This document shows positions 3,082-48,697 of a stretch of 64,000 nt of DNA, piece by piece. Origin of the DNA: Vulcanimicrobiota bacterium (GTDB taxonomy: Bacteria; Vulcanimicrobiota; Xenobia; Xenobiales; JADMJV01); contig JBFWNU010000001.1 in the NCBI GenBank assembly GCA_050250895.1, positions 776,008 through 840,007 of the forward strand, read 5' to 3'. Position 1 is the stretch's first letter; each line of letters starts with the position of its first letter. Under the pieces are notes generated by a model. That model was not told the origin of the DNA. It made no database searches and was given only the letters and a program-made list of their open reading frames with translations. A program made the position numbers and the translations under genes.

Positions 3082-3378
3082 ATGGTCATTCATAACGCAG
3101 CAGCCCAGCGACCCACCTTCCAGATCCCCGGTACTCCGCCCCGGCAAGAGAAAGAAGCCCAGCCGCAACCGCCGGCTGACTCGTTTACGCCCAGCCCCAC
3201 CCCCAAGGCACCGCTGCCCTGGAAGCGGGCCATGCTCAACGGAGCCGTAGCCTCGGTCCTGATCGGCGGGGGCATCGCGGCCGCCCTGCGCTCGCCCACG
3301 GCCGGCCTCATCGCGGCTGCTGTTGGCGGCGCCGCTGGCGTGGCCCTGGCCTTCTACGACGCCAACAAAGAGGCCTAA
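3082..3378 (+). CDS. Small membrane protein with disordered N-terminus, DSFTPS motif and two Gly/Ala-rich TM helices
   Basis: ATG 3082, 6 nt after a TACCAT -10-like element; MVIHNAAAQRP...PPADSFTPS...AVASVLIGGGIAAAL...GLIAAAVGGAAGVALAF. Confidence 0.7.
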   Translation: MVIHNAAAQRPTFQIPGTPPRQEKEAQPQPPADSFTPSPTPKAPLPWKRAMLNGAVASVLIGGGIAAALRSPTAGLIAAAVGGAAGVALAFYDANKEA

Positions 3379-6300
3379 GCCCGGCGCGAGCACTCGGCCA
3401 GTTGGCCGAGCATGCGCGCCAGCACGTCTCCACTGGCCAGATTGAGCTGGCCGTCTTCGACGATCTCGCGGACCAACTGGTCGTAGCGAGCCACCGGGCT
3501 ACCCTGCAAGGTGTCGAAGTCTTGCTCGGATAGCGACAGGCGCAGCTGAATCTGACGCAGGTCCATGATCAGGCCCACCATCGCGATGGTCTCCCATTTG
3601 TCGGTGGTCTGGATGGCCCGCAGGTTGTCGCGCAACCAACCCATCTTGAGTCGCTCGCCCACGGCGTAGAAGCGCTTGGCGGCCACCTCGAGAGGAATGT
3701 CGGCGATGCGACTGTTGTCGACCACACCGATTCCGCTGGGCACGTAATCCAGGCCCACCACCTCGGTGGCGAACTCATGGGGAAAGCCCAATTCGATGCA
3801 GCGCTGCAGCAACTCGTCGTAGCGGTCGTGCTCGGAGCCGGGCAAGAGGCTCTTGATGTTGGTGCGCAAATCGGCCAGGCGCTCGCGATAGGTCTCGATC
3901 ATCGTCGACAGACTGGCCAGATCGGTGTCGGTCAAGAGAATCCAGTTGACCACGTTTTCGAGGGCCTTCACCAGGCCGCCCAGGACATAGTAGAACGACG
4001 AGGCCGGCACCTGCTTTTCATAGCTGCGCAGCTTGGCGATGAAGGGCTTGACGTCGACCATTTCCATGGCCGCCAGCCCCGCGCGCAGCACCTGGATCGG
4101 GGTGGCCCCGGTGTCACGAATGGTGCGATGCACGAAAGTAATCCCTAGCAGATCGACCACCTGGTTGGTGAACTGGGTGGCGATAATCTCGCGATAGAGC
4201 GGATGCTTGGGAATACGGTCGGCGAACTTCTCGGTCAGCAAGTGCGGGAAGTAGTCGTAGAGATAGTGACTGAACAACGGCTCGTCCGGGAAGTTGGTCT
4301 CGAGGATGCGCCGATACAGACCCATCTTGGTGTAGGCCAGAATAATGGCCAACTCGGGACGGGTGAACCCTTCGTTGTTGCGGGCCCGCTCGGCCAGGGC
4401 CTTGCGATCGGGCAAGAACTCGACCTGCTTGTCGAGGCCGCCCCGCTCGACCAGATAGTCCATCAGCGACGTGAACAAGGCCATGTCCTCGCTGCTGCGT
4501 TGCTGAGCCAGCGAAAGACACAGGGTCTGCCAATAGTTGTCTTCGAGAACCAGTCGCGAGACATCGTCGGTCATCTCTTCGAGAATCTGGTTGCGTTGCT
4601 GGAACGAGATGTCGCCATGGGTTACCAGCGGCTGCAACAGAATCTTGATATTGACCTCGTGGTCACTCATATCCACGCCAGCCGAGTTATCGATGGCGTC
4701 GGTGTTGATGCAGCCGCCCAGGCGGGCATACTCGATGCGAGCCAACTGAGTGAAGCCCTGGTTGCCGCCCTCGCCGATGACCCGAGCGCCCAGTTCGGGC
4801 GCGCTCACGCGCACGGCGTCGTTGCTCGAGTCACCCACATCGCGGTCAGTCTCGCTCGAAGAGCGGACGTAGGTGCCGATGCCGCCGTTCCAGAGCAGGT
4901 CGACCTTCATCTTGAGGATAGCCCGAATCAGGTCCTGGCCGCTGAGTTCGCTGGCCTCGACCCCCAGCATCTGGCGCACTTCGGGGCTGAGCGCAATCGA
5001 CTTGGCCGCCCGCTTGAAGATGCCTCCGCCCGGGGAGATCAGACTGGTGTCATAGTCCTCCCAGCTGGAACGAGGCAACTCGAACATCCGCTTGCGCTCG
5101 ACGAAACTGCGAGCCGCATCAGGGTTGGGATCGAGAAAGATGTGCATGTGATTGAAGGCGGCTTGCAACCGGGTCTTGTCGCTATAGATCAAGCCGTTTC
5201 CGAACACGTCGCCCGACAGGTCCCCGATGCCGATACAGGTGAACTCTTCCTGCATGACATCGATGCCTAGCTCGAAGAAGTGACGCTTGACCCCTTCCCA
5301 GGCGCCGCGAGCGGTGATGCCTTCTTTCTTGTGGTCATAGCCCTGCGAGCCGCCCGAGGCGAAAGCATCACCCAGCCAGAAGTCGTATTCGGCCGAGACG
5401 CTGTTGGCGATGTCGCTGAACGTGGCCGTGCCCTTGTCGGCCGCCACCACCAGGTAGGGGTCGGGGCCGTCATAGATGACCAGACCTTCGGGGTGGACAA
5501 TCTCGCCCCGCTGGTTGTTGTCGGTCAGGTCAAGCAAGCCACGAATGAACGTCTTGTACTGCTCGACCACGTAGTTCATCAGAGCTTCGCGGTCCTGGGG
5601 GGCGCGCTTGACCACGAAACCGCCCTTCGAGCCTACCGGCACGATCACGGCGTTTTTGGTCATCTGGGTCTTCATCAACCCCAGCACTTCGGTGCGAAAA
5701 TCGTCGGGACGGTCGCTCCAGCGAAGGCCGCCGCGGGCGACCATACCACCGCGCAGGTGGATGCCCTCGACTCCGGGGCCGCTGACCACGATCTCGTAGA
5801 GGGGGCGCGGTTCGGGCATCTCTTTGACCTGGCGCGAAGAGACCTTGTGGCTGATGAACTCCTTGGCTTTGAAAAAGTTCGACCGCACGGTCGATTCCAT
5901 CAAATTGAAGAGATTTCGCAGAGTGCGATCGTAAGCCAGCGACGAGACGCCGTTGAGCAGGTCGAAGAAGTTCGTCCGATGCTCCTCCATGGCCGTCTGG
6001 CGGTCGGCCAGTTCGGGGTCAAAGCGAGCCGCGAAGTAACGATAGAGTTCAGCGGCACACTCAGGGTGGGCCAGCAAAGTGTCGTTGATAAAGTGACGGC
6101 TGGTGCCCACCGACACCTGCGAGAGATACATCTGATAGGTCTTGAGCAGCGAGACCTCGCGCCAGCTGAGCCCTCCGCTGGTGATCAAGCCGTTGAGACG
6201 GTCGTTCTCGGCCCGACCTTCGAGCAGCACCACCATGGCCTCGACCAGGCGCTTTTTGTCCTTGCGAACATCCAACGGCTTGCCGCTACGCTTGTCTTGA

Positions 6301-8156
6301 ACCCGAAAAACGTCGATGGTGGCCATCTGGCCCGAGCGTCGTCCGCGGGTGGAAATCTTGTGCGAACTCTGTAGCAGCACTCGCAGGCCCAGGTTCTCGA
6401 GCACGGGCAACACCTGGCTCAAGACCAGGTTATCATCGCGGTGATAGATGCGCACATGGCTGGCGGCCTCGCCATAGCGCTCTTCCATCGGGTTGACGAT
6501 ATCGACCCGGTAACGATCTTCGCTGTCGAGCAGGCTGCCGATGTTGGTGATGTCGCGCACCGCCATGCCCAGGGGCGCCGAGGCTACATAACCGTCAGGG
6601 AAAGAGTTGGCGTAATCCTCAGCCAAACGATGTCCGCGGGCTTCGCCGTGGGTCGAGACCAGCTTTTCGGTCAGCCGGTCGCTCCAGGTCTTGGTCAGGT
6701 CGACCACCTTGCGCTCGAGTTCGGGCAGGTCGATCCCCTGCATGTCGACATCCGTGGTCAAGAAGAAGTGAAAGCGAACCTGCTCTTCGTCTTCACCCAT
6801 CGACAGCTGATAGTCGACCTGGTTGGCCGCGAAGGTCTCGGCCAGCAGCTCTTGCACATCGTTGCGCACGGCCGTGTTGAAGCGATCGCGAGGCATGATC
6901 ACCATGACCAGCAAACCGCGGGCCAAAGGATCAGGGCGGATGGTCAGTCGCACCTCATGCTCTTGTTGCATGGCCATGATCGTGCGGATGTCGCGGTGAA
7001 GCTCGACGGCGTCAGACCAGAAGAGCTCTTCGCGGGGCATCGAGTTGAAGATGGTGACGATCTGTTTGTAGTCGTGCGAACCTTCGATGGCCTGGTCAAG
7101 ATCCAGAACCTGGCGCAGACGATGGCGCAGGATCGGAATGTCCTTGACCGGAGTGGTCAGCGCCCCCGAGGTGAACAAACCTAGAAAGCGCATCTCGCCG
7201 ATGATGTTGAAGTCTTTGTCGAGCTTCTTGAGACCGACATAGTCCATGCGCACGGGGCGATGCACGGTCGACTCGGCGTTGGCCTTGGTCACGATCATCA
7301 GCGGCCCGCTGGTGACCCGCTGGCGAAGATTGTCGGGAAGCTGGCTCAACTGCACGGGCTGCTGATAGTTGCTGCTCTCGAGGTTCTTGAGGATGCCCAG
7401 GGCCGTATCCTTGTTGACCTGTAGGAAGCGACCTTCGGGCTTCTCGAGAATGTCGTATTCACGAAAACCGAGGAAGACGAAATTGTGGTAGGTCAGCCAA
7501 TTTAGGAAAGCTTCACACTCTTCGAGATGACCCACCTGAGGGTCGTCTGGGCAATCGCTACGCAGTCCCGCCAGGCTCTCGCAAAGACTGGCCACTTTGG
7601 CTCGCATGGCCTGGTAATCATCGGTCGCCATTACCACATCGCGAAGCACCTGGCCGACCCGTTCTTCGAGGGAACGGAGCCCGGTCTCATCCTCGACCCG
7701 CTCGACCAGATACAACTCGTAGACCTCGCGTCCAGCCTCGGAACTACGGGTCAGATCGCGCCGCAGGCGACCCTCGTCATCACGATGAGTGTAGTAGATC
7801 GGGTGCAGCAGGTGGTAGATGTCCAGGCTCTGGCGCTTGAGTTCGTGGGTGATCGAATCCACGATGAAGGGCCGATCGCGCAGGCTGACCTCGAGCGCGG
7901 TCCAGGGGCAATCCCAGCCGTCGGCCTCGTAGCTCGGATTGAAGGCGCGCACCCAGATGTCATCGGGGCGGCGTTCTTCGAGCACCTTGAGCGCGCCCAG
8001 GGTGATCGCCATGAGACTTTCGGGATCGAACTCTCGCAAGAAGCCAGGGGAGGCCTTCTCGAAGAGCAGAGTGGAGAACTCCTTAAGGAAAGAGGTCTCT
8101 TCAGTCGGCACGCGACGCTCGATATGGTCGGCCAACTTCTCCAGGGTCGCGGTCAC
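3375..8156 (-). CDS. gdhB: NAD-specific glutamate dehydrogenase (large, ~1600 aa type)
   Basis: RGGLRWSDR, KNAVIVPVGSKGGF, DPYLVVAADKGTATFSD, GDAFASGGS, GYDHKKEGITARGAW; GTG start at 8156 with GGAGG upstream. Confidence 0.95.
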   Translation of the reverse strand: MTATLEKLADHIERRVPTEETSFLKEFSTLLFEKASPGFLREFDPESLMAITLGALKVLEERRPDDIWVRAFNPSYEADGWDCPWTALEVSLRDRPFIVDSITHELKRQSLDIYHLLHPIYYTHRDDEGRLRRDLTRSSEAGREVYELYLVERVEDETGLRSLEERVGQVLRDVVMATDDYQAMRAKVASLCESLAGLRSDCPDDPQVGHLEECEAFLNWLTYHNFVFLGFREYDILEKPEGRFLQVNKDTALGILKNLESSNYQQPVQLSQLPDNLRQRVTSGPLMIVTKANAESTVHRPVRMDYVGLKKLDKDFNIIGEMRFLGLFTSGALTTPVKDIPILRHRLRQVLDLDQAIEGSHDYKQIVTIFNSMPREELFWSDAVELHRDIRTIMAMQQEHEVRLTIRPDPLARGLLVMVIMPRDRFNTAVRNDVQELLAETFAANQVDYQLSMGEDEEQVRFHFFLTTDVDMQGIDLPELERKVVDLTKTWSDRLTEKLVSTHGEARGHRLAEDYANSFPDGYVASAPLGMAVRDITNIGSLLDSEDRYRVDIVNPMEERYGEAASHVRIYHRDDNLVLSQVLPVLENLGLRVLLQSSHKISTRGRRSGQMATIDVFRVQDKRSGKPLDVRKDKKRLVEAMVVLLEGRAENDRLNGLITSGGLSWREVSLLKTYQMYLSQVSVGTSRHFINDTLLAHPECAAELYRYFAARFDPELADRQTAMEEHRTNFFDLLNGVSSLAYDRTLRNLFNLMESTVRSNFFKAKEFISHKVSSRQVKEMPEPRPLYEIVVSGPGVEGIHLRGGMVARGGLRWSDRPDDFRTEVLGLMKTQMTKNAVIVPVGSKGGFVVKRAPQDREALMNYVVEQYKTFIRGLLDLTDNNQRGEIVHPEGLVIYDGPDPYLVVAADKGTATFSDIANSVSAEYDFWLGDAFASGGSQGYDHKKEGITARGAWEGVKRHFFELGIDVMQEEFTCIGIGDLSGDVFGNGLIYSDKTRLQAAFNHMHIFLDPNPDAARSFVERKRMFELPRSSWEDYDTSLISPGGGIFKRAAKSIALSPEVRQMLGVEASELSGQDLIRAILKMKVDLLWNGGIGTYVRSSSETDRDVGDSSNDAVRVSAPELGARVIGEGGNQGFTQLARIEYARLGGCINTDAIDNSAGVDMSDHEVNIKILLQPLVTHGDISFQQRNQILEEMTDDVSRLVLEDNYWQTLCLSLAQQRSSEDMALFTSLMDYLVERGGLDKQVEFLPDRKALAERARNNEGFTRPELAIILAYTKMGLYRRILETNFPDEPLFSHYLYDYFPHLLTEKFADRIPKHPLYREIIATQFTNQVVDLLGITFVHRTIRDTGATPIQVLRAGLAAMEMVDVKPFIAKLRSYEKQVPASSFYYVLGGLVKALENVVNWILLTDTDLASLSTMIETYRERLADLRTNIKSLLPGSEHDRYDELLQRCIELGFPHEFATEVVGLDYVPSGIGVVDNSRIADIPLEVAAKRFYAVGERLKMGWLRDNLRAIQTTDKWETIAMVGLIMDLRQIQLRLSLSEQDFDTLQGSPVARYDQLVREIVEDGQLNLASGDVLARMLGQLAECSRRA

Positions 8157-8232
8157 GGTAAGTCCTCCAAGAAAATTCGTCTCGCCTATCGTTCCCTTTT
8201 CTACCGCCCGTAAACTCTCCTGGAGGGGGAGG

Positions 8233-10653
8233 TTAATTGTCGACAGGAACGCGCAAAAATGGGCCTTCATCGAAATGGAGTTCGAGCACGTAGGCTGACC
8301 TTCCGCGACTCACGAACTCCTCGTCGCCGGCATAGATCGTCAGCTCTCGGGGCCGACCCAGATCGAGGTCACACCCGTGTTGCTGATTGAGGACCAGGCC
8401 GCCGCTCATCACCAGGGCCACCCCTTCGTCGGCGTCGGGATGGGTCGAGCTGCGCAGGCCGCGACTGGTGGCCACATCGACCCGTCGCAACCTCCGCCCC
8501 GGGGCATCGACTGTGGCTTTCAGCTTGAGGGTCCGATGGCGGCCGAAGTCGGTCCCTCCGAGCCGCGCCTGGAGACTGACGACTTCGACACTGGCCCGGG
8601 TGCCGCGAATAGCCTTGGCACGGGCTGCCCACTCGTCGGCCTCTGGCCGTTGGATGGCTCGCAGACAGCGAGCCAGATGAGCGGCCGCACGGGCGGCCTC
8701 GAGATGCTCGGCCCCGAGCACGGTGCGACTGCGAACCAGGGGCCAACCGAGCCCTCCGGTGACGAGGTCGAGGGGCCAGCCGTGTCCCACCGTCCAGCCC
8801 ACATCCAGACGGTTGGACCCGATGTGGAGTTGCCAGGCAAGGGTGGCTTCGACCAGGGCCTGTTCCGGCTCTTTGAGGGCCAGCCAGGCCAGCGCCCTGA
8901 CGGTGTGGGCTCGGGCCAACCAGAGGCCATCAAGACCGCCCAACTGCTCGAGTCGAGCCAGGGCCTGACCCGGGCTCTCGGCGGCCAGCCAGGCCTGACT
9001 CACCTCGACGGCCAGCGCTCCCGTCGGAGCCCGCTCACTAAGCTGGCTGGTCTGCCCGGCCAAAAGGCACCACAGAGACCAGGATGCCTGCGCCTCGGCA
9101 GATTCTCGGCCAAACAGTTCGCTGTCGAGCTGCCAGCCCAGGTGGGCGGCCGCGGCCGCTTCGGCTCGGCGCCCGGCGGCTTCCAGCAAGGTGGCCTCGA
9201 CATCGGCCAGCCGAGCGCGACCGACGGGATTCTCTTTCCAGGCTGAAGGGATGGCGGCCAGCTGGCGTAGGGCCATCTCGAGCTGGCCGTGGCCAACGTG
9301 CAGCTCGAGCTGGGCCTGGCTCACTTCGAAGTGGGCCAGGCCTTGCTCGGGATGAGCCTCGAGCAAACGTGAGGCCGCCCGCCGGCAGTGGTGCTCGGCT
9401 TCCCAGAGGCGGCCTTGATGGCGAGCGCACCAGGCCATGCCGATCAACACCGAACTCAGATGCCAGCGGGCCGAGCCCGGTTGATCGCGCTGGGCTCGCT
9501 CGACGGCCGTCAGACAATCCAGGGCATCGGCCGGCCGGCCCTGGCGAACCAGCAGCTGCCCGAGACGCTGTTGGTCGGGCGGCTCGATGCCAGCCAGTTG
9601 ATGACCTAGACAGCGAAGGGCGAAGTATGGGCGAGCGGCGGGACGATAGCCGGCCCGAGTCAGCCCCGCAAAGACTCTTTGAGCCTCGGCAAACTGATGG
9701 TCAGCCAACAGCTGGCGGCCCCACCCTTCGGCCGCTCCGGCCACCTCGAGTTGGCCGGGTAGTTGCAACTGGTCCAGGTTGTCGAGCAGCGCCTGGCGAG
9801 CGACCAGGAAAGCCGCCCGCATCCATCCGAGAGCAGCCTGATGACGGTCGTCTTCGAGCAAGCGTAAACGTGTCATGTCCCGCCCGAGCGATGTCCAGCC
9901 CACGGCCTCGCAGGGCCAGTAAGGATCGGGTGGCTCGACCGCATAGCTGATTCCGTCCACCACCAGCCAGCCACGGCGCTCCCCACCGCCGAGGGAGACA
10001 AAGCCGGAGCCAATCTCCGAGCGCAAAGAGACGGCCCGCCAGGCCAGCGGGGCCAGCGGAGGAGCGGGCTGGCTGAGGGTGCTCACCCAGGCATCCAACG
10101 GCTCGTGTTGGAGTGGTTGTCCATCGAGACTGACCGGAATCGGTGACCAGCCGCAACGAGCGGCCAACTCGGTTCGGTCGAGAGAGGCGACGCCCACCTC
10201 GAGGGTCCAGCCCTCTTCGAATCCGTCCTCGTCCAACAGCGTCTGACCCTGCAATTCGGCCACCAGACGGACGTTGCCCGAGCCAACCCGGACCTGGGCG
10301 GCTCCCTCGATCATAAGGGTATAGATGGCCAGGCTCAGATCGGTAAAACCCGCTCGGGGGCGATGACCGAACATCTGGGCTAGCAATCCCCCCAGCTCGT
10401 GACGTCCCAGTTGGGGCCCCTCTGCCTCGAAGCGAAAACCGCGCCCCTGGCTCAAGATGCGAGCCGCCGTGGCCCCGAAACCTACCGCCGCCGACACCAG
10501 CAAGAGGGGCGCGTCTCGCAGGCTCAGGGCCGAGAACTCTTCGAGCCGTCGGCGGGCGGCGGCGGGGTCGAGTGTAAAGACCAGGTCGGCCTGCTCGAGG
10601 GCTCCCTCCTCGTGCAGTCGACTCAGAAACTGCTGGAGGCGGTCGGCCTTCAA
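8233..10653 (-). CDS. Large hypothetical protein with degenerate GHKL/Hsp90-like N-terminus and TPR-like helical repeats
   Basis: Probable TTG start overlapping the upstream TGA; FTLDPAAARRRLEEF...LLVSAAVGFGA N-terminal pattern; Ala/Leu-rich helical repeats. Confidence 0.6.
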   Translation of the reverse strand: MKADRLQQFLSRLHEEGALEQADLVFTLDPAAARRRLEEFSALSLRDAPLLLVSAAVGFGATAARILSQGRGFRFEAEGPQLGRHELGGLLAQMFGHRPRAGFTDLSLAIYTLMIEGAAQVRVGSGNVRLVAELQGQTLLDEDGFEEGWTLEVGVASLDRTELAARCGWSPIPVSLDGQPLQHEPLDAWVSTLSQPAPPLAPLAWRAVSLRSEIGSGFVSLGGGERRGWLVVDGISYAVEPPDPYWPCEAVGWTSLGRDMTRLRLLEDDRHQAALGWMRAAFLVARQALLDNLDQLQLPGQLEVAGAAEGWGRQLLADHQFAEAQRVFAGLTRAGYRPAARPYFALRCLGHQLAGIEPPDQQRLGQLLVRQGRPADALDCLTAVERAQRDQPGSARWHLSSVLIGMAWCARHQGRLWEAEHHCRRAASRLLEAHPEQGLAHFEVSQAQLELHVGHGQLEMALRQLAAIPSAWKENPVGRARLADVEATLLEAAGRRAEAAAAAHLGWQLDSELFGRESAEAQASWSLWCLLAGQTSQLSERAPTGALAVEVSQAWLAAESPGQALARLEQLGGLDGLWLARAHTVRALAWLALKEPEQALVEATLAWQLHIGSNRLDVGWTVGHGWPLDLVTGGLGWPLVRSRTVLGAEHLEAARAAAHLARCLRAIQRPEADEWAARAKAIRGTRASVEVVSLQARLGGTDFGRHRTLKLKATVDAPGRRLRRVDVATSRGLRSSTHPDADEGVALVMSGGLVLNQQHGCDLDLGRPRELTIYAGDEEFVSRGRSAYVLELHFDEGPFLRVPVDN

Positions 10654-12356: not shown

Positions 12357-12382
12357 TCTCTTGCGTTCGCAGCAATTCGGGA

Positions 12383-12411
12383 TTGTCCCTGGGACCGGTC
12401 GATGCTATCAT
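12383..12411 (+). promoter_or_regulatory. Sigma70-type promoter, probably leaderless
   Basis: TTGTCC-17 nt-TATCAT with extended TG, 7 nt before ATG 12419. Confidence 0.55.
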
Positions 12412-12418
12412 GGCAAAG

Positions 12419-12805
12419 ATGAATCCTAGCAAGCGAGCCAACCGTTGGGCTATACAAGGCGCCAAGATCGGGGCTATCTCGCTGGGAGTGGTGGGACTGG
12501 TTTCGGGCATGACCATCTGCATCGTCCTCAAACTGCCGGTGCCCCCCATTTTCACCACCGAGATGGGCATTCTGCTGGGCGGCAGCCTGGGCGCGCTGAT
12601 CGGCTACACCTGCTCTTTCCGCCGTGGCTTGCAGTCGCTGCAAGGCTTGACCGTGGGCTTGTCAGCAGGAGTGGCCCTCTGGTGGGTGGACTGGGCCCCC
12701 TTAATGGTTAGCCTGGCGCTGCTCGGGGCGCTAGGACTCTTCCTGGGCTACCAAATGCCGGAAGACCCCGAGTCGACCAGCGACTGGAAACTGGTCAAAC
12801 GCTAG
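12419..12805 (+). CDS. Hypothetical membrane protein (about 4 TM)
   Basis: Four hydrophobic Gly-rich segments; start chosen from promoter position (alternative ATG 12410). Confidence 0.7.
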   Translation: MNPSKRANRWAIQGAKIGAISLGVVGLVSGMTICIVLKLPVPPIFTTEMGILLGGSLGALIGYTCSFRRGLQSLQGLTVGLSAGVALWWVDWAPLMVSLALLGALGLFLGYQMPEDPESTSDWKLVKR

Positions 12806-27055: not shown

Positions 27056-27556
27056 ATGGATATCTTGAGCGGAATCGACTCACCCTTCGAACTGCAAGGC
27101 AAACGCCAAAGCCTGCGCTTCTCGGGTGATGACGTGGGGGGTCAATTTCAGGTGGAGTTGTCCGCCAACGGTTGCCGAACCCAGGTTCACGGCTCCTGGG
27201 ACCGGTCAGACAACAGTGGCTACAACCAGGCCGGCTTCTACTTCGACCTCTCGGTGGTCGACCACGACCCCGACAAGAACCTGGCCATGCGCCTGACCCG
27301 CGATGACCGGGGCCAGGGCAAATTGCACATCATCAACCCCGGTCTCGACGAATGTGTTCAGATCAGCGCGCCTATCGGAGACATCTCGCAAGCCAGCAGC
27401 AACTGCTTCGAGCCCGACTTCTTCGCCTATCGGTCAGTCACTGACGTGACCATCGAGACCGACGAAGAGGGAATCGCGCTGTCCATCTATCGCGAGTGCG
27501 AGCCGGCACCGACCCGCTTCGTCTTCCGTGACGGCTCGGTTTTGTCCGAAAGTTAA
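27056..27556 (+). CDS. Hypothetical acidic beta-rich protein
   Basis: ORF with AAGGA 9 nt before ATG 27056 (alternative ATG 27047); no family recognised. Confidence 0.7.
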   Translation: MDILSGIDSPFELQGKRQSLRFSGDDVGGQFQVELSANGCRTQVHGSWDRSDNSGYNQAGFYFDLSVVDHDPDKNLAMRLTRDDRGQGKLHIINPGLDECVQISAPIGDISQASSNCFEPDFFAYRSVTDVTIETDEEGIALSIYRECEPAPTRFVFRDGSVLSES

Positions 27557-40144: not shown

Positions 40145-40163
40145 GACGTCACCACTCGTCGCG

Positions 40164-40195
40164 AAAAGAGCGCCGGTTCGCCGGCGCTCTTTTTC
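40164..40195. terminator. Bidirectional intrinsic terminator
   Basis: aaaagagcgccgg-ttcg-ccggcgctcttttt between convergent genes. Confidence 0.85.
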
Positions 40196-40276
40196 ATGGG
40201 CGGTAGGTAGCCGCGCAATGGATCAACGCAAAGAGGCCTCGCGCCTTCGCGCCTGCGGCTTCCTCAAATCCGGCGC

Positions 40277-41401
40277 TTACCGCAGATTGACCGGGCCGAT
40301 GTGCTTGTAGTGGTCTTTGCCGCGGAAGCTGAAGGCTCGCAGCGGCTGGTTGGAGAGGCTCCTAGCCAGGTTGTCGGCGGTGGTCTCGCCCGCCTCTTTG
40401 GCCGAGTGTTTGTCGGCCGGCACGGGTTGGCCGCCGCTGCGGGCCAGCGCCGCGTCGCCGATCACGAAGACCTCGGGATGATCGGGCAGAGTCAGATGGT
40501 CGGTCACCTCCACCCGTCCGCCACGGGTGGTGGGACCGAGGCGTTGGAGGACCTCGGGTGACTCCGTGCCTACGGCCAGCATAATGGCGGAAGCTGAAAG
40601 CACCTCACCTGAGGTCAGTGTTACCTGACCTTCGGCCACGTCGGCAAGGCGCTCACCAAGACGCAGAGTCACTCCTTTCTCGAGCAAGGCCGCGGTAGCC
40701 CGGCGGCTCACATCGTCGGGCATCCCTTGGCACAGTCGGGGTTGGCTGTGGATTAGGGTAAGATTGAGATCTTTGGACAGACTGGGATCGACCTGCTCGA
40801 CCAGGTCGGCCACGATGCCGGCCAGTTCGACGCCGGTGGCTCCCCCACCGACCACCACGAACTGCAGTTGCTGGGCGCGGCGGCCAGGGTCGGTCTCGGC
40901 CAGAGCGGCCATCGCCTGGGTGCGAACCGTTTCGCGAATCTTCTGAGTGTCTTCAGGCTGGTCGAGGGTCAGCACGTGCTCGGCCCACTCGGGATGGCCC
41001 AACAGAGCCGGTCGCGAGCCCAGGGCTACCACCAGGTAGTCGTAAGAAATGCGCTGGCCGCGGTCAAGGACTACCTGGCGAGTGGCCACATCGATGTCGG
41101 TGACCTCGCCCAATCGCAGCTGGCCGCCGGCCTTTCCCACGACTTTGGCTAGCGACTGCTGGGCTTCAGAAGTCTCTTTCCCGCCCACCGTCACCTTCCA
41201 GAGCTTGGTCTTGTAGGTCTGAGCGGGCTTGCGGTCGACCAGGGTCAGGTGGACGGGCGCCTTGAGCGACTCGACGAACTCGACGCCGGCGTAGCCGCCT
41301 CCCAGCACCACCACCTTGGGACTGTCCTGACCGGGGGCTGGCCGCCGCTTGTGGTGGCCGGCCCGAAGGGTGGGGCTGAAGTTAGAAAGACGAGTGAGCA
41401 T
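40277..41401 (-). CDS. NDH-2/FSP1-like NAD(P)/FAD oxidoreductase with N-terminal extension
   Basis: VVLGGGYAG, YDYLVVALGS, VVGGGATGVELAG, VFVIGD; ATG 41401 with AGGAGG RBS. Confidence 0.88.
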   Translation of the reverse strand: MLTRLSNFSPTLRAGHHKRRPAPGQDSPKVVVLGGGYAGVEFVESLKAPVHLTLVDRKPAQTYKTKLWKVTVGGKETSEAQQSLAKVVGKAGGQLRLGEVTDIDVATRQVVLDRGQRISYDYLVVALGSRPALLGHPEWAEHVLTLDQPEDTQKIRETVRTQAMAALAETDPGRRAQQLQFVVVGGGATGVELAGIVADLVEQVDPSLSKDLNLTLIHSQPRLCQGMPDDVSRRATAALLEKGVTLRLGERLADVAEGQVTLTSGEVLSASAIMLAVGTESPEVLQRLGPTTRGGRVEVTDHLTLPDHPEVFVIGDAALARSGGQPVPADKHSAKEAGETTADNLARSLSNQPLRAFSFRGKDHYKHIGPVNLR

Positions 41402-41435
41402 CGGTTGTTCCTCCTGCTGGTTTGCTGGTAACAAC

Positions 41436-41467
41436 ACGATAGCAGGGTCGCCTTGACCAGACCTTGA
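41436..41467 (-). promoter_or_regulatory. SARP-type direct-repeat promoter (box 1)
   Basis: TCAAG gtctgg TCAAG gcgaccctgc TATCGT, upstream of the NDH-2-like gene. Confidence 0.75.
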
Positions 41468-41475
41468 CCGACCGA

Positions 41476-43692: not shown

Positions 43693-43705
43693 GGGCGGCG
43701 GTTCC

Positions 43706-45682
43706 TCATTTTCTTACCGGGTCCTCCACCAACTGGTGTCGCCCGTTTCGGATCTCGAGCAGATAGACGGGTAGCTCGGCCGGCATCTTGCCAGGGCTGA
43801 GATAGCCCGAGGCGCCGATGTAAGCCGGTTGCGTCGAGCCCAGGGCTCGAAGATTATGGCGGATCTGGTCGCGTGAGTGGCCCAGCCACGGCTCGAGCAG
43901 AGTGACTCCGTCATAGCCTTGAGCGGCGGCGCGAGTTGGCTCGACCCCAGGAAACTGGCCTTGAAACTCCTCTACGAAAGCCTTCACCGGAGCAGCCTGG
44001 GACTCGGGAAAGAAAGTCTCGGCCAGGCGCAAACCGTCGAGGGCGTCGCCCCCCGCCTCGAGCAGCCCGGCGCTGTATCCCACCACGTTGGAATAGAGTT
44101 CGGCCTGGGAACCCGAACGACGCAGCTGACGGGCGAACTCGCCCAAATAGCTGCCCGGAGCGGCTACAAAAAAGATAGCCTGCGCCCCTTTGAGTTCGTC
44201 CACCAGGGCCGAAAAGTCGCGGGTCGAGGTTGGGTAGGTGCGCTCGACCACGGTGGTCTCGCCGAGATTGCCTTTGACCACGAAGGCCAGATCGCGAGCC
44301 ATGGCCTGCTGATCATCGTAGAGTAGCCACACTTCCGAAAAATGGCGTTGGGCCAACTGGCGGGCCAGCGGCACCACCCTGGCCGGAAAGGGTGCACCCA
44401 GGGTGAAAAGGCTATCGCTTTGCCAGGCTTTGGGATGGGTCGCGCCCAAGGAAACCACCGGCAACTGTCGCCGGGCGGCCAAGAGCTCTACCGCCAGGGT
44501 GCGTTCCGAGTTGGTGGGGCCCAGCAAACAGCGAATCTTGGGGTCGGCTCCCAGGCGGTCCACCCAGCCCATGCTCTGGGCAATGGTGCTCTGGTCGTCG
44601 CATACCTGCAACCGCAGCGGCCGCCCCTGCTGCTGAACGCGTCGCTGAGCCAGAGCGGCGCCCTGAAGAAAGTTGCGAGCCTGGCGCCACTCTGGTCCGG
44701 TCAAGGGCACCACGATGGGTAGCACGGGTGATTCTGGCTGACCCAGGTTCTGGGCGGTGATGAGGGCCAAACCGTCGTCGGGCTCGGCCTGCTGCCAGCT
44801 TTGAGCCAGTTGTCGGGCCAAAGTCTCGTCGCCCTGCAGCAAGGCCTGGTCGATTCGAGCCAGAAACGGCGATACGCCGGGCTCGGTCGGACCCACCGGC
44901 AGCAGGCCCAGCACCAGGCAAACCAGGGAGCAAAGGCACAACAGCGTGGCCGTCCACAACGACCGGGCCGGAATCAGCGCCGCCGGCCGTCCCAGTTGAG
45001 CCAACCACTCGAGCAGCTCGGCACCGCTCTGGGGACGCTGGTCCGGATCGTGATGGGTCCACTTGTGCAGTAGCTCGGCGAAGGGCGAGCGGGCCGGTCC
45101 GATCATCGCCTCGAACAGCTTGCCAAGCGAGTAGATGTCGCTGCGGGCATCACACCGATGGTCGCTCTCCGGGGCCAGATAGCGCGCCACCCCGCCCGCG
45201 GCCGGACCGGGCGACTGGAGGGCCAGCCCGAGATCGACCACCCGCACGCTCCCACCGTCGTCGAGCAGCAGATTCGCCGGATTGAGGTCGACCAGATAGA
45301 CCGAGTGCTGATGGAGATAGTCGAGCAGCCGAGCCACCTCATAGACCACCGTCAAGGCCCGGGCCACAGGCAACGGCGCCTTTTCCAGCCGAGCCGCCAG
45401 GGTCTGGCCGCTGATAGCGTCCATGACTAGAGCGGGGCGACCTTCGTGTTCGAGGCGGTCCACCAGGGTCGGAAGAGCTCGATGCTGCAGTCGGGCCAGC
45501 AGTTGGGCCTCGGTGGCAAACAGCTGCTCGAGACGCACGCCAGGCACTCTGGGTTCGGCCAGTTTCACGGCCCAGCGCGTGCCCGGCAGGCGCAGGTCTT
45601 CGCACAACAGAACCTGGCTGGTGCCCCCCTGGGCCAACACCGCCGCCACTTTGTAGCGACCGCTGAGGACCTGCCCTATCAC
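43706..45682 (-). CDS. Degenerate Ser/Thr kinase - TM - periplasmic ligand-binding domain
   Basis: LAQGGTSQV, WAVK, LVDLNPANL, VDLG, YLAPE, SDIYSLG; LivJ-like C-terminus; paralogue of 17878..20109. Confidence 0.85.
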   Translation of the reverse strand: MIGQVLSGRYKVAAVLAQGGTSQVLLCEDLRLPGTRWAVKLAEPRVPGVRLEQLFATEAQLLARLQHRALPTLVDRLEHEGRPALVMDAISGQTLAARLEKAPLPVARALTVVYEVARLLDYLHQHSVYLVDLNPANLLLDDGGSVRVVDLGLALQSPGPAAGGVARYLAPESDHRCDARSDIYSLGKLFEAMIGPARSPFAELLHKWTHHDPDQRPQSGAELLEWLAQLGRPAALIPARSLWTATLLCLCSLVCLVLGLLPVGPTEPGVSPFLARIDQALLQGDETLARQLAQSWQQAEPDDGLALITAQNLGQPESPVLPIVVPLTGPEWRQARNFLQGAALAQRRVQQQGRPLRLQVCDDQSTIAQSMGWVDRLGADPKIRCLLGPTNSERTLAVELLAARRQLPVVSLGATHPKAWQSDSLFTLGAPFPARVVPLARQLAQRHFSEVWLLYDDQQAMARDLAFVVKGNLGETTVVERTYPTSTRDFSALVDELKGAQAIFFVAAPGSYLGEFARQLRRSGSQAELYSNVVGYSAGLLEAGGDALDGLRLAETFFPESQAAPVKAFVEEFQGQFPGVEPTRAAAQGYDGVTLLEPWLGHSRDQIRHNLRALGSTQPAYIGASGYLSPGKMPAELPVYLLEIRNGRHQLVEDPVRK

Positions 45683-46695
45683 GGGGCGAACCGGGCCGGC
45701 AAGATCAGATCGGCCCCTTCAGAATGACAACTGAGTCGCCCGCCAGCGGTGGCCACCGCATCCTGCAGCTGCTCAGAAATGTCGCCACCACCCTGCAGTC
45801 TGACCCAGACCTCGTCGGCCTTTTCCTGGGTGGTCACCGACACCTTGCCCATCATCAACTGACCCAACAGATGCCCCAGTCCGGCCGGATCGGCGATAAT
45901 GGTGTGGGTGAGTTGGCCGGGCCTCCAATCGATGCTCAGCCCCGAAGCCTGGACGGCCGCCTCGACCAGTTGATTGATATCGACCGGGACCCGTACCAAC
46001 TGGCTGAAGGTCACGTCCCGCTCGACCATATCGTAAGGTCGGCGGGCAAAGAGCATGAGTTTCTCGATGACCGTCTGGCAACGCTCGACCGAACGCTTGA
46101 TCAGATCGACCCGACGGGCCACGGCAGGGTCTTCACCCCGACCCAGGCGCGTAGCATTGGTCAGGATGGTGGCCAGCGGCGTGTTGAGTTCATGGGCCAC
46201 TCCCGCAGCCATCTTGCCCAGGGCCACAAATCCACGCCGGTCCTCGTCACCAAGGCCCGAAGCCCGATGGCGCAAGCTCTCGAATAACGGCAACACGGGC
46301 CGGCAATCGGCCGCCAGGGCGGCCGCCGAGCCAGCCTCACCCGTCCAGACCAGGGCCAGCCCAGGACTCAGCCGGAGGCCCTGACTCGAGCCCTCGTCAA
46401 AAAGCTGCGCGGCCGCGGCGCGGCAGTTCTCGAGCTGCCCGGACACCGGCTCCCAACTGCACAACAGGGTGGGTTCGGGACCCGAGAAAAGAAAGAGAGA
46501 CTCTAACCGGTGGTGCCGCCCCAGGATAGCCAGCACCTGGCTGCCGGCCTCGGTCACCTGGGTGGTCGAAGTGGCCGCCTGGGCCAGCTCCTCCCACAGC
46601 CGCGAGCGGCGGCTGGCCCGCACGAGCAGGGCCAGACTCAAGCAAGAAGAGATGGTTGCACCAAGGGCGGCCACGGCCAGCAGAGTGGTATTCAC
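45679..46695 (-). CDS. Membrane-anchored HisKA protein with eroded ATPase domain
   Basis: LGKMAAGVAHELNTPL H-box intact; N, G1, F and G2 boxes not recognisable. Confidence 0.8.
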   Translation of the reverse strand: MNTTLLAVAALGATISSCLSLALLVRASRRSRLWEELAQAATSTTQVTEAGSQVLAILGRHHRLESLFLFSGPEPTLLCSWEPVSGQLENCRAAAAQLFDEGSSQGLRLSPGLALVWTGEAGSAAALAADCRPVLPLFESLRHRASGLGDEDRRGFVALGKMAAGVAHELNTPLATILTNATRLGRGEDPAVARRVDLIKRSVERCQTVIEKLMLFARRPYDMVERDVTFSQLVRVPVDINQLVEAAVQASGLSIDWRPGQLTHTIIADPAGLGHLLGQLMMGKVSVTTQEKADEVWVRLQGGGDISEQLQDAVATAGGRLSCHSEGADLILPARFAP

Positions 46696-47819
46696 TGCGT
46701 CGGCGGATGAAACCCCAGGTGAAGGGCGCTGCGCACCAGCTTCGTGCCGAGTTCGGTCCGGGCCTCGAAGTCAAGACTAAGAGGCAACTCGAATAGCAGG
46801 GATACGCCAGCGCCGCCTTTGCCGGCTTCTTGCACCAGGGTCCCATCGTAGCGATAGGGCACCAGGCGAAAGTCATGCTCGCGCAGGACCGGCTCGAAGG
46901 CCTTCAGAAAGGCAAGGCTCTGCGGGGTGGGGTGGAAAATGCACAGACGGCCGGCCCGCCCCTGGTCCCATTCGGCCAGCCCCTCGTGCAAGTCGATCGC
47001 CAGGCCTGCCTGCTGAGCGGCACTACAGATCTCGGCCGCCCGTTGCTGCTCGGGAGTACCGTTAGGGTCGCCCGGAAAGATGCGGTTCATATCGACCGAT
47101 TGCCCGTCCTCACCGAGGTTGCGACGGCTAATCATCATGCCGGCCCAGGGATTGCCGTTGGAGAAAGTGCGCACCCGAGACTCGGGATGCTCGTCGTGGA
47201 TGGTCCCTGCCACGGCCATGCCGGAGAGTTCGTTGCCATGGACGCCTCCCACCACGACCGCCTTGCGCACCCGCTCTACCCCGTCGCTCGGGCGCATGTC
47301 TAGCCAGTCGCAGACCTGGTCGACGTTGGCGAAAACCATGTGCTGGGCCAGCAGTTGTGGATGCTCGTGCTTGAGCTGGCCAAAAACCTCGCGGGTGGCG
47401 GCGGGGTCGTCGGCCAGCCGAGCGCGCAGGGCCTCGACTTCACGAGGCAAGGTGCCGGCGTTGCGACGGTGAACCTCGAGCCGGTGCAGCAACCCGTCGC
47501 GAACCCGGTCGCTCATTCCATGGCCGGCCGTTCCCTTGAGCACCGCGTGACAGTCCTCGAAGAGCAGGATAGGCCGCCGACTCACTTTTGGCGGCTCCTG
47601 CCAATCCAGGGTTTTCGGAGCCGCCGCGAGCTGGCAAGTGGGGCCTTTGGGCACCGCCGGCGGCGGGGGCTCGGTGGGTGACGGTTTGGCGGCCGGGGCT
47701 GCCCCTAGCTCGCATTGGTCGAGGGGAAGGGGGGCCTCGTCGGTGGCGGGAGCCACAGTGAAGGCTCGATGGGGCGGAACAAACGCTTCCCGACGACCGA
47801 CGATCCCCTGCAACTCCAT
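46692..47819 (-). CDS. Succinylglutamate desuccinylase/aspartoacylase (M14-like) protein with Pro-rich N-terminal extension
   Basis: GGVHGNE, NPWA, DMNRIFPG, IDLHE. Confidence 0.8.
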   Translation of the reverse strand: MELQGIVGRREAFVPPHRAFTVAPATDEAPLPLDQCELGAAPAAKPSPTEPPPPAVPKGPTCQLAAAPKTLDWQEPPKVSRRPILLFEDCHAVLKGTAGHGMSDRVRDGLLHRLEVHRRNAGTLPREVEALRARLADDPAATREVFGQLKHEHPQLLAQHMVFANVDQVCDWLDMRPSDGVERVRKAVVVGGVHGNELSGMAVAGTIHDEHPESRVRTFSNGNPWAGMMISRRNLGEDGQSVDMNRIFPGDPNGTPEQQRAAEICSAAQQAGLAIDLHEGLAEWDQGRAGRLCIFHPTPQSLAFLKAFEPVLREHDFRLVPYRYDGTLVQEAGKGGAGVSLLFELPLSLDFEARTELGTKLVRSALHLGFHPPTQ

Positions 47820-47825
47820 AGCATG

Positions 47826-47854
47826 GTTATGCCACCCCTATAAGGTCGTGTCAA
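47826..47854 (-). promoter_or_regulatory. Sigma70-type promoter of the signalling operon (leaderless)
   Basis: TTGACA-17 nt-CATAAC with extended TG, 6 nt before ATG 47819. Confidence 0.55.
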
Positions 47855-47860
47855 GCTCAC

Positions 47861-47917
47861 AAAAAAAAGGGTTCCGCATAGCGGAACCAACTAGGAGCTA
47901 TCTATTCTCACTCAACC
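47861..47917 (-). ncRNA. Candidate ~57-nt small RNA
   Basis: Lies between direct-repeat promoter box 2 and terminator ggttccgc-tat-gcggaacc-c-T8; no meaningful ORF. Confidence 0.6.
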
Positions 47918-47922
47918 AGATA

Positions 47923-47954
47923 AGCTTAAGCCCACCATCTTGAAAAATCCTTGA
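47923..47954 (-). promoter_or_regulatory. SARP-type direct-repeat promoter (box 2)
   Basis: TCAAG gatttt TCAAG atggtgggct TAAGCT. Confidence 0.75.
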
Positions 47955-47962
47955 CGGGGGTT

Positions 47963-47996
47963 AGAAAGAAAAAAGGGCCCCGTGTTACCGGGGCCC
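47963..47996 (-). terminator. Intrinsic terminator of 48021..48314
   Basis: gggccccg-gtaaca-cggggccc followed by ttttttctttct on the minus strand. Confidence 0.85.
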
Positions 47997-48020
47997 GATA
48001 GCGCGTTCAACTAAGAACTC

Positions 48021-48314
48021 TTACTTGTGCAGGGCTTCGCTGACGCCGATCCCCGCGCACATAAAGCCGGCCATGACCGAGCTAAATCCTGTATAAGGGA
48101 AACCTACCAGGGCCAAACCGACTCCGCCGGCCATCAACACGCCGCCTGCGGCGAACCAACGACCGGGCTGCGGCTGGCTGGCCGTGGTCGAAGGGGTGAA
48201 GGTCTCGGTGGGCTCCGAATTCGATGCCGCGCGGCTCGACTGGGCTGGAACGGACGTGGCTTGTCGAGTATAAACTCTAGCAATGGATGGGCTGTTGAAG
48301 TGCGAACGAATCAT
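48021..48314 (-). CDS. Small membrane protein with disordered N-terminus, ETFTPS motif and two TM helices
   Basis: GAGGAGG RBS before ATG 48314; MIRSHFNSPS...SEPTETFTPS...WFAAGGVLMAGGVGLALVG. Confidence 0.78.
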   Translation of the reverse strand: MIRSHFNSPSIARVYTRQATSVPAQSSRAASNSEPTETFTPSTTASQPQPGRWFAAGGVLMAGGVGLALVGFPYTGFSSVMAGFMCAGIGVSEALHK

Positions 48315-48357
48315 CTTATCCTCCTCAGGCTGGCTCTGGGTCCTGCCTCCTGACATC

Positions 48358-48389
48358 AGACTAGCCGGCCCACCTTGACTTTTCCTTGA
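48358..48389 (-). promoter_or_regulatory. SARP-type direct-repeat promoter (box 3)
   Basis: TCAAG gaaaag TCAAG gtgggccggc TAGTCT. Confidence 0.75.
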
Positions 48390-48398
48390 GCTGAAAAG

Positions 48399-48430
48399 TC
48401 AAGGTCAAGTCAAGGCTGAGCACCTATAGT
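48399..48430 (+). promoter_or_regulatory. SARP-type direct-repeat promoter (box 4, leaderless)
   Basis: TCAAG gtcaag TCAAG gctgagcacc TATAGT, 6 nt before ATG 48437. Confidence 0.75.
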
Positions 48431-48436
48431 AGGGTC

Positions 48437-48697
48437 ATGATCATTTCGACGCATTCACCCAAACATCGCTCTTCCTTGGCTCGCCCGGCTGTGGCCCGGC
48501 CCGAGCCCGAACCGCAAGACACTTACACGCCTGGCTCTCGCCCGGTGGTCATGGCCACGCCGGTCTTGACCATGTTCGGAGCGGCCGGCCTGGGCATCTA
48601 TCATGGTTCCTGGGCGCTGGGCCTGGTCGGGGCAGCCGGTGGGGCTTGCCTGGGGGTGGCCCTCGACTACGGCTTCAACAAATGGATGGCCTCATGA
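48437..48697 (+). CDS. Small membrane protein with disordered N-terminus, DTYTP motif and two Gly-rich TM helices
   Basis: MIISTHSPK...EPEPQDTYTPGS...VLTMFGAAGLG...LGLVGAAGGACLGVAL. Confidence 0.75.
   Translation: MIISTHSPKHRSSLARPAVARPEPEPQDTYTPGSRPVVMATPVLTMFGAAGLGIYHGSWALGLVGAAGGACLGVALDYGFNKWMAS

Follow-up and report, generated by a model that had tools for sequence, protein, structure and literature searches.

A two-part N-terminal tag on small membrane-hairpin proteins and many unrelated proteins of a Vulcanimicrobiota bacterium, possibly a non-Sec export signal

A 64,000-nucleotide stretch of the genome of a Vulcanimicrobiota bacterium (GenBank assembly GCA_050250895.1, contig JBFWNU010000001.1, positions 776,008 to 840,007 of the forward strand; the window in what follows) encodes four small proteins in which a disordered leader and a short motif, [DE][ST][FY]xP, precede a Gly/Ala-rich hydrophobic hairpin. 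Analysis of the whole genome and of its relatives has revealed that these four open reading frames (ORFs) belong with a much larger set of proteins, in this poorly known lineage of soil and marine bacteria, carrying a two-part N-terminal tag, which comprises a Met-x-Ile/Val start (Box 1) and, about 30 residues in, a short conserved element with an aspartic acid (Box 2). We are nearly certain that the tag is real and conserved, and we consider a non-Sec export or targeting signal to be the best reading of it, with a probability of about 0.5. One-step secretion signals, those of type III systems above all, notoriously lack a consensus, and effectors are hard to predict. In the literature on Eremiobacterota secretion and on leaderless or type III signals, as judged from listings, we found no description of this tag or of the promoter that accompanies it.

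All four ORFs named by a sequence-only reading of the window are present, in position and in strand:

3082..3378, + strand: tagged small protein 1, 98 aa, MVIH start, DSFTP at residue 33; Box 1 MVI, an Ala/Pro/Gln-rich spacer and Box 2, then a two-helix Gly/Ala-rich hairpin
3172-3195, + strand: Box 2 of protein 1, PADSFTPS, residues 31-38, 14.9 bits
27638..28135, + strand: tagged small protein 2, 165 aa, MVIT start, DSFQP at residue 30; AAGGAG ribosome-binding site before the start, long Gly/Ala-rich hydrophobic region
48021..48314, - strand: tagged small protein 3, 97 aa, MIRS start, ETFTP at residue 37; GAGGAGG before the start, Box 2 PTETFTPS (13.7 bits), hydrophobic hairpin
48437..48697, + strand: tagged small protein 4, 86 aa, MIIS start, DTYTP at residue 28; Box 2 PQDTYTPG (14.3 bits), two hydrophobic stretches

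The four proteins are short (86-165 aa), begin Met-Val/Ile-Ile/Arg, and have ahead of the motif a disordered-type stretch of 27-36 residues, 63-79% of which are P/S/T/A/Q/R/N; no RR-x-F-L-K-like (Tat) motif is visible in their N-termini. After the motif they contain 34-48% Gly plus Ala and at least two hydrophobic stretches, the first of which starts at residue 36-52. A single-sequence AlphaFold2 model of protein 1 shows residues 1-45 as coil, with a predicted local distance difference test score (pLDDT) of 54-63, and helices at 46-70 and 72-97 (pLDDT 71-82). For protein 2, Box 2 reaches 22.6 bits with a matrix made from the DSFxP set and less than 10 bits with the generalised matrix described below, and for protein 3 an in-frame ATG further upstream, at 48356, is the less likely start. 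Neither Pfam nor NCBIfam gave a significant family for any of the four; in Pfam no family at all was matched at E of 1 or better, the ESPR and YSIRK models and the glycine-zipper families PF13441, PF13488 and PF05433 included, and a weak match of protein 1 to the NCBIfam YiaD glycine-zipper model had an E of 0.81. The assertion that the hairpins are unrelated in sequence was too strong, as pairwise BLASTP, without composition correction, aligned them at 27-32% identity (E 3e-8 to 2e-4); they may be distant paralogues or merely similar in composition. Searches with proteins 1 and 4 as queries turned up no close orthologue of either, even within the same genus. Weak tag-plus-hairpin matches occurred in 14 and 8 of 40 genomes, respectively, and in none of the small-genome family of the same order; those in the bacterium's own family and in a sister family of large genomes are other tag-plus-hairpin proteins. 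Look-alikes of protein 1 in the ESM Atlas all scored below 0.9 and serve as leads only, its structural neighbours there including Gly-zipper clusters at a template-modelling (TM) score of about 0.5.

The tag extends well beyond these four proteins. The genome (9.5 Mb in 17 contigs) was translated with a crude, home-made gene call that yielded 8497 genes (91% coding). Here the expected proteome-wide positional enrichment of [DE][ST][FY]xP was borne out: 41 (25%) of its 163 matches lie at index 15-55, vs. 8-12.5% of the matches of five permuted control motifs, and the bins covering residues 20-49 hold 36 matches, or 14.2 per 100,000 positions vs. 4.6 per 100,000 past residue 300. With all its elements (M-[VI]-x start, motif, short protein and hydrophobic tail), the strict pattern matched five times in the six-frame genome, four of these being the window ORFs, and the same N-terminal layout was seen on proteins unlike the window hairpins, namely subtilase-like (708-779 aa) and lipase-like proteins and proteins of 1269 and 1406 aa. 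Alignment of 27 motif proteins extended Box 2 to P-x-[DE]-[ST]-[FY]-x-P-[SG] and brought out Box 1 at the N-terminus. Because the codons at the conserved positions are synonymously mixed (GAC 13 vs. GAT 12, four Pro codons, both Ser codon families), it is the protein that is conserved here, as opposed to a repeat in the DNA.

As an independent approach, residues 11-80 of 275 proteins chosen solely by their promoter (see below) were analyzed by expectation maximisation (EM), which returned P-x-D-[RTSGQ]-[VF]-[EST]-[LP]-[SAG], i.e. the earlier motif in generalised form, with flavours such as DQVSLG, DRVELS and DSFTPS. The consensus from EM and a position-specific scoring matrix (PSSM), P-x-D-x-[V/F/Y]-x-[L/P]-[S/G/A], has [DE][ST][FY]xP as one flavour. 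With the EM matrix, which was trained on the same regulon set that it scores, Box 2 reached at least 10 bits in 70 of 222 regulon N-termini vs. 1.8% of their internal windows, and in 1.9% of 5899 other N-termini vs. 0.7% of their internal windows. The plain expression D.[VFY].[LP][SGA] at residues 15-62 likewise matched 32/222 regulon proteins, with 4 internal matches and 2-6 for three permuted motifs, and 150/5899 non-regulon proteins, with 71 internal matches and 62-70 for the controls. In addition, 59% of regulon proteins have Ile or Val as their third residue, vs. 14% of the remainder.

For a stringent census, the tag was defined as Box 2 of at least 10 bits within residues 11-70 plus Ile, Val or Leu at residue 3, and this definition yielded 109 tagged proteins, 53 in the regulon and 56 outside it (the four window genes lack a strong promoter). 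They have a median length of 372 aa, with the Box 2 Asp at residue 31 (10th-90th percentile 26-43). At residue 2 the usual amino acids are Gln, Arg, Lys, Val and Leu, Ala and Pro make up 17% and 15% of the spacer, and the separation from residue 3 to the Box 2 Asp is at least 24 in 85/109, 19-23 in 20/109 and smaller in 4/109. The absence of a Sec-type N-terminus, already remarked for the window proteins, is a property of the set, with an early hydrophobic core in the first 30 residues of 3/109 tagged proteins vs. 24.3% of the other 7899. Specificity for Gly-rich hairpins, on the other hand, did not survive, since 83/109 have no strongly hydrophobic segment after Box 2.

The strongest evidence that the tag has a function comes from its conservation in other genomes. 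Among 15 orthologues of a tagged endonuclease-I-family protein (38-88% identity; source names include metagenome-assembled genomes of Eremiobacterota, Vulcanimicrobiota, Xenobia and Armatimonadetes), the Box 2 Asp is the sole invariant column before residue 55 and Box 1 is kept, with the spacer free in length and sequence, a pattern that indicates, at the level of sequence, that the tag is under selection. Several of these orthologues end in long Arg/Gln/Asn-rich basic tails; the copy in the present genome has no tail. The tagged endonuclease was found in 15/15 genomes of the bacterium's own family, 5/5 of the sister family and 4/19 of the small-genome family, and the copies in the latter begin Met-Asn/Ser-Ile with a D-x-V/L element; as they keep a tag-like start, the tag reaches further than the promoter. 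In a GlpD-like clade, Box 1, Box 2 and a Gly-zipper hairpin are kept as an N-terminal addition of ~100-190 residues to an ordinary ~535-aa enzyme, which by its sequence has the architecture of the window proteins plus an enzyme. A profile built from 20 tag sequences gave 19 matches in its own genome (mostly training rows) and 0-1 in five other genomes; it is uninformative on distribution because it misses genomes of the same genus in which tagged proteins demonstrably exist.

About half of the tagged genes share a promoter, as the sequence-only reading had suggested for the window genes, but the element is a TTTCAG tandem and not the TCAAG box it had proposed. Upstream of 49 motif-bearing genes, TTTCAG and TAGACT stood out among k-mers, TTTCAG being present in 13/49 vs. 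3.8% of all genes (p=3e-8). TTTCAG-N10-TAnnnT occurs 143 times in the genome, mostly with an ATG or GTG ~6 nt after it, and a logo of 55 such sites (GTG start in 21) exhibited a second, unselected TTTCAG 11 bp upstream of the first, with the distal hexamer at -39..-34 (T.73/.91, C.75, A.95, G.76), the proximal one at -28..-23 and CTAGnCT at -13..-7. The full promoter thus reads TTTCAG-N5-TTTCAG-N9-CTAGnCT-N6-start codon, the repeats ending 9-10 bp before the -10 element. A position weight matrix (PWM) of it found 294 sites at 18 bits or more vs. 4 on the reversed genome, and 374 vs. 58 at 14 bits or more; of 373 distinct sites in the latter class, 350 have a plausible ORF behind them. At 185/373 sites the start codon follows the -10 element by 5-8 nt, and those mRNAs are therefore probably leaderless. 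The regulon amounts to roughly 270-290 promoters, about half of them with the start codon 6-7 nt past the -10 element and thus probably giving leaderless mRNAs. Many regulon genes other than the tagged ones have Box 1 alone. Two YidD-domain proteins of 279-318 aa, far longer than ordinary YidD, also lie behind the regulon promoter (C1:327652-328608 and C4 near 731065, C denoting contigs of the assembly here and below).

The promoter is also conserved in relatives. The pattern TTCAG-N6-TTCAG-N10-TAnnnT, counted exactly in 151 genomes of the phylum, occurs 52 times in the present genome (reversed control 0; 0-1 in any genome), and elsewhere as follows:

own family: 15/15 genomes, 3-46 per genome
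sister family, large genomes: 5/5 genomes, 25-56 per genome
a family of the same class: 3/3 genomes, 4-9 per genome
small-genome family of the same order: 2/19 genomes, 1-2 per genome
most remaining genomes: 0-2 each, up to 7 in one further family (f13)

Behind 37 of 40 promoter sites drawn from four other genomes there is an open frame, many of these starting Met-x-Ile/Val and some carrying Box 2 variants such as DSVVLG, DGFSPS, DRFTPT and DAFDPS; the strict expression matched 6/37 vs. 0-3 for the controls. Judged from these sequences, promoter and tag recur together in related large-genome Eremiobacterota of other genera and families.

As for what is tagged, 33 of the top 60 regulon proteins have no Pfam family at E of 1e-4 or better. 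The other 27 comprise two alpha-amylases, two GDPD proteins, two P450s, M48, M61, C26, C92 and S8 peptidases, endonuclease I, two InhA-MAM proteins (one with a discoidin domain), a LysM protein, two PQQ-type propellers, GlpD, a pyruvate-kinase barrel, ADP-PFK/GK, a lipid desaturase, a PrmA-like methyltransferase, a dynein-type AAA protein, YidD, GT2, PD40 and DUF4405. The tag is thus found, without a preceding Sec-like core, on families that are usually extracytoplasmic (endonuclease I, subtilases with propeptide-like N-termini, LysM, InhA-MAM/discoidin proteases) and also on cytoplasm-type enzymes (pyruvate-kinase barrel, ADP-PFK/GK, P450, GlpD). We take this cargo as an argument for export; one-step delivery to the outside or into another cell would fit both groups. 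In a tagged amylase elsewhere in the genome the N-terminal region matches Rick_17kDa_Anti and Gly-zipper_YMGG.

Based on these data, we surmise that the tagged proteins form a lineage-wide class, of which the four window ORFs, with nothing but tag and membrane hairpin, are the smallest. In the mechanism we postulate, an activator binding the TTTCAG repeats would drive a regulon of mostly leaderless mRNAs, whose products would begin with a retained Met, a bulky residue (Q/R/K/V/L) and Ile or Val, followed by an unstructured, Ala/Pro-rich spacer of variable make-up and by Box 2 with its Asp at residue 31. Read in the cytoplasm as an address label, the tag would present two separate signals, its hydrophobic N-terminus and the beta-strand-like motif further downstream, and would direct proteins, finished or still nascent, to a one-step, non-Sec route of export or injection. 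The window proteins would then be cargo that inserts into membranes, with an action resembling that of type III hairpin effectors. A predatory way of life has been proposed, on other grounds, for large-genome marine Eremiobacterota (PMC9259500); we make no such claim for this genome.

The genome does encode a candidate non-Sec export system of the kind that the sequence-only reading had called for, in the form of two complete flagellar-type type III gates (FHIPEP/FlhB/FliPQR):

C1, about 555-592 kb: cluster 1, complete flagellar locus with flagellin, hook-associated proteins, motor, rings, FliA, FliS and FlgM
C1:1458932-1476156: cluster 2, FlgB, FlgC, FliE-like, FliF, FliG, FliI, FliK, FliM, FliN, FliOPQR, FlhB, FlhA and a short 271-aa hook-like protein

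A Pfam scan of cluster 2 found no filament, motor, distal rod or L/P-ring genes, and Box 2 was not seen in the flagellar proteins examined in this genome. Elsewhere in the phylum, too, it is common for a genome to have two full FHIPEP genes. Eight further proteins, none of them tagged, consist of the C-terminal cytoplasmic domain of FlhA (FlhA-C) behind unrelated N-termini, one of which is a helix-turn-helix-like region; another lies within a 984-aa membrane protein:

C6:529281-530666: FlhA-C paralogue 1
C1:2013805-2014935: FlhA-C paralogue 2
C1:2473655-2476609: FlhA-C paralogue 3
C7:121829-122929: FlhA-C paralogue 4
C1:1126937-1128199: FlhA-C paralogue 5
C7:117220-118743: FlhA-C paralogue 6
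C1:2008491-2009819: FlhA-C paralogue 7
C8:31611-33212: FlhA-C paralogue 8

FHIPEP matches number at least 5-9 per genome in the large-genome families and 2-3 in the small-genome family. Other routes were looked for in the genome and set aside, no TssC homologue (type VI secretion), no VirB4-type homologue (type IV secretion) and no phage-sheath homologue (contractile systems) being found; of injectisome-specific parts, the search covered secretins, two of which are present.

Several observations weigh against export through such a gate. FHIPEP is found in 146/151 genomes of the phylum, including the small-genome family in which the promoter pattern is so rare, and its near-universal presence means that co-distribution does not single out type III secretion. 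Neither flagellar cluster contains a regulon promoter of 14 bits or more (none lies within 60 kb of cluster 1, and near cluster 2 there are two weak, unrelated matches only), nor is there one beside the FlhA-C paralogues, bar a tagged-looking gene next to C1:2013805. No chaperone genes were recognised, though no systematic chaperone search was made, and the tagged genes themselves are dispersed in the genome. Box 2, being D-x-hydrophobic-x-hydrophobic-S/G, is not the F-x-x-x-hydrophobic of early flagellar substrates, and four residues past Phe the window and related members have P/T/S/G/H. Much of the cargo belongs to ordinary cytoplasmic metabolism, and tag plus hairpin would leave GlpD at the producer's cytoplasmic membrane face, its normal place. 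A lipobox-like site occurs in 5/109 tagged proteins, some tags preceding Sec- or lipoprotein-like signals. On the statistical side, gene calls and start sites are home-made, a clear Box 2 is found in only 14-32% of regulon proteins, and split-half EM was less clean than the full run, its consensus drifting to AAAAPVDR and AAQPAAEQ, with matches at 9 bits in 18-19% of held-out N-termini vs. 4% of internal windows. Having considered these points, we infer export with the even odds given at the outset, and regard the flagellar-type apparatus as a plausible but unproven route, to be held only tentatively. It is likewise a possibility, albeit one we would not bet on, that large-genome Eremiobacterota possess an undescribed delivery system in which a promoter-co-induced address is placed on 100-300 effectors, with the filament-less second apparatus as its possible exporter and the window genes as minimal membrane-inserting effectors.

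The alternative that survives best, to which we give a real but minor share, is that nothing is exported and the tag serves inside the producer's cytoplasm for docking, localisation or turnover. Box 1 and Box 2 would then bind a hub protein (a scaffold, membrane domain, compartment shell or unfoldase/protease), which would gather or time stress- or development-induced enzymes. The single activator-type promoter suits such an induced programme, and the finding of no regulatory or positional link to secretion genes is in line with it, as is cargo that needs cytoplasmic substrates or cofactors (pyruvate-kinase barrel, ADP-PFK/GK, PrmA-like methyltransferase, P450s, GlpD); with tag and hairpin, GlpD and two amylases would stay at the cytoplasmic face of the membrane. 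Endonuclease I, the subtilases, LysM and the MAM/discoidin proteases, however, are extracytoplasmic families, and a non-specific nuclease kept in the cytoplasm would be hazardous. With respect to a compartment shell, the presence of bacterial microcompartment (BMC) shell genes counts in favor, and no family-1 encapsulin (Linocin_M18) was found in the genome, which counts against it, as does the Pro-rich tag, which is not an amphipathic helix by sequence. To our knowledge, microcompartment encapsulation peptides are amphipathic helices, unlike the tag, and known compartments load far fewer than the at least 100 cargo proteins seen here. The BMC shell genes, three in number, lie at separate places (C1:2264946, C1:3276317 and C8:184500).

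Alternatively, the tag may be an N-terminal extension that works with Sec, the signal recognition particle or YidC, and routes, delays or orients the insertion or export of a following hydrophobic segment, much as known extended pre-signals such as autotransporter extended signal peptides and YSIRK-type signals do. We consider this rather unlikely. A strongly hydrophobic 19-mer within 70 residues after Box 2 is indeed present in 26/109 tagged proteins vs. 11.6% of others at comparable positions, with lipobox-like or Ala-x-Ala-like ends after it in several, all four window proteins are hairpin membrane proteins, and the regulon includes the two YidD-domain proteins. Against this stand the 83 tagged proteins with no such segment, soluble cargo such as the endonuclease orthologues, which keeps the tag with no hydrophobic core behind it, and the lack of any ESPR or YSIRK match in Pfam for the window proteins. 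While a label for use inside the cell would fit the cytoplasm-type cargo only, a helper of Sec would fit the membrane-bearing minority only. That the tag has no function, being a by-product of Pro/Ala-rich low-complexity N-termini in a GC-rich genome, of leaderless-start constraints or of start-site choice, we regard as very improbable: Box 1 does overlap the first transcribed bases of leaderless genes, where RT at +7/+8 could be a DNA-level constraint, the split-half drift was toward the Ala/Pro-rich spacer, and starts were picked by our own caller, but Box 1 is shared by genes that have ribosome-binding sites and leaders of 20-50 nt, no enrichment was seen for permuted or reversed motifs, the Box 2 Asp stays invariant amid a hypervariable region, codons across Box 2 are synonymously mixed, and the same tag stands behind the promoter in other genera and families.

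Returning to the window, the main regulon promoter does not reach 10 bits upstream of any of its four tagged genes. The TCAAG box is real at the divergent gene pair 48021/48437; as a general promoter box it was rejected, being present upstream of 9/49 motif genes vs. 13.1% of all genes (p=0.19). TCAAG-N6-TCAAG-N10-TAnnnT occurs at five sites genome-wide, four of them in the window, and its reversed pattern at none. The sites and their neighbours are:

48399..48430, + strand: gene 4 promoter-like site, TCAAG-N6-TCAAG-N10-TATAGT, the architecture of the TTTCAG promoter with another hexamer
48358..48389, - strand: gene 3 promoter-like site, TCAAG-N6-TCAAG-N10-TAGTCT, 43 nt before the start codon
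48372..48405, intergenic between divergent genes 3 and 4: perfect 13-bp inverted repeat, ACCTTGACTTTTC / GAAAAGTCAAGGT, with an 8-nt spacer
47923..47957, - strand: regulon-type promoter match (PWM 14.9 bits), also a TCAAG tandem, 103 nt upstream of the AstE/AspA-like gene
46692..47819, - strand: AstE/AspA-like protein (succinylglutamate desuccinylase/aspartoacylase domain), 375 aa
41436..41467, - strand: fourth TCAAG tandem site, 34 nt upstream of a pyridine-nucleotide-disulphide oxidoreductase gene

The site of gene 4 holds the direct repeat AAGTCAAGG with an 11-nt period, and its start codon follows the -10-like hexamer TATAGT by 6 nt; its mRNA is probably leaderless. The 13-bp inverted repeat overlaps the TCAAG tandem architecture between genes 3 and 4 and is likely a regulator-binding site common to both. 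Of the two other genes, the AstE/AspA-like protein has an N-terminal extension with a weak Box 2-like element, PLDQCELG (7.9 bits), and the oxidoreductase (40277-41401) has one beginning MLTRLSNF. By its sequence the TCAAG tandem is a rare local variant of the TTTCAG promoter, possibly served by a paralogous regulator. Upstream of gene 2 by 81 nt and on the same strand, a 166-aa orphan with no Pfam family (27056-27556, +) may be co-transcribed with it, and just downstream, on the opposite strand, lies a Memo-like protein (PF01875; 28167-29390, -). A 1631-aa ORF (3375-8270, -), presumably a large NAD-specific glutamate dehydrogenase by its resemblance to that family, is convergent with gene 1 and overlaps its end by 4 nt.

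If the tag proves to be an export signal, it would supply a ready list of cargo, half of it sharing a promoter, in a phylum with almost no cultured members, together with a tractable system for how an export gate reads two separate signals; a filament-less apparatus repurposed as an exporter would parallel the origin of the injectisome. Should it instead mark proteins for localisation or turnover inside the cell, it would even so amount to a sorting code of proteome scale not described before. The promoter, with its tandem hexamers and a -10 element 6 nt before the start, is of interest in itself, as it would govern a large regulon of probably leaderless genes.

Among known systems, the two-signal code of early flagellar type III substrates matches the tag in geometry: a hydrophobic N-terminal signal is followed, at a distance of at least 24-30 residues, by a gate-recognition motif. 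In Salmonella FlgD, as shown by Bryant et al. (2022, eLife, PMC8983047), a hydrophobic signal occupies residues 2-5 and a gate-recognition motif residues 36-40, export begins at a separation of 19 residues and is optimal from about 24, and all rod and hook subunits have their gate motif 30 residues or more from the N-terminus. The tagged proteins resemble these in their unstructured spacer, in a short second motif ~30 residues in, in the two FlhB/FlhA gates encoded here and in the minimum spacing, with 105/109 at 19 residues or more and 85/109 at 24 or more. They differ from them, besides the form of Box 2, in a cargo of more than 100 non-flagellar enzymes and orphans with no link to flagellar genes.

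The type III hairpin membrane effectors, chlamydial Inc proteins and EspZ/SepZ of enteropathogenic Escherichia coli, are like the window proteins in being small (here about 90-165 aa) and in having an unstructured, non-Sec N-terminus and a hydrophobic two-helix hairpin. The two show no sequence relationship, the Atlas SepZ cluster (0.76) being at chance level, there is no shared Pfam family, and we know of no consensus motif among known type III effectors. Glycine-zipper families (Gly-zipper_YMGG, Gly-zipper_Omp, Rick_17kDa_Anti) share the Gly/Ala-rich hairpins, but they usually follow a Sec or lipoprotein signal, and, as noted above, no window protein matches them. As regards the promoter, PhoB/OmpR-type promoters such as the pho box have direct repeats one helical turn apart that replace the -35 element; the regulon promoter is like them in its two repeats of 11-bp period, ending ~10 bp upstream of the -10 hexamer, and unlike them in its TTTCAG repeat, its mostly leaderless transcripts and its number of sites (about 270-290), far above that of the Pho regulon. 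Finally, Plasmodium PEXEL and oomycete RxLR are short motifs some tens of residues in, borne by hundreds of unrelated proteins, and the tag resembles them as a short conserved motif at a fixed N-terminal distance on many unrelated proteins; whereas those eukaryotic motifs follow a classical signal peptide, the tag is bacterial, is preceded by no signal peptide and has a second box at the very N-terminus.

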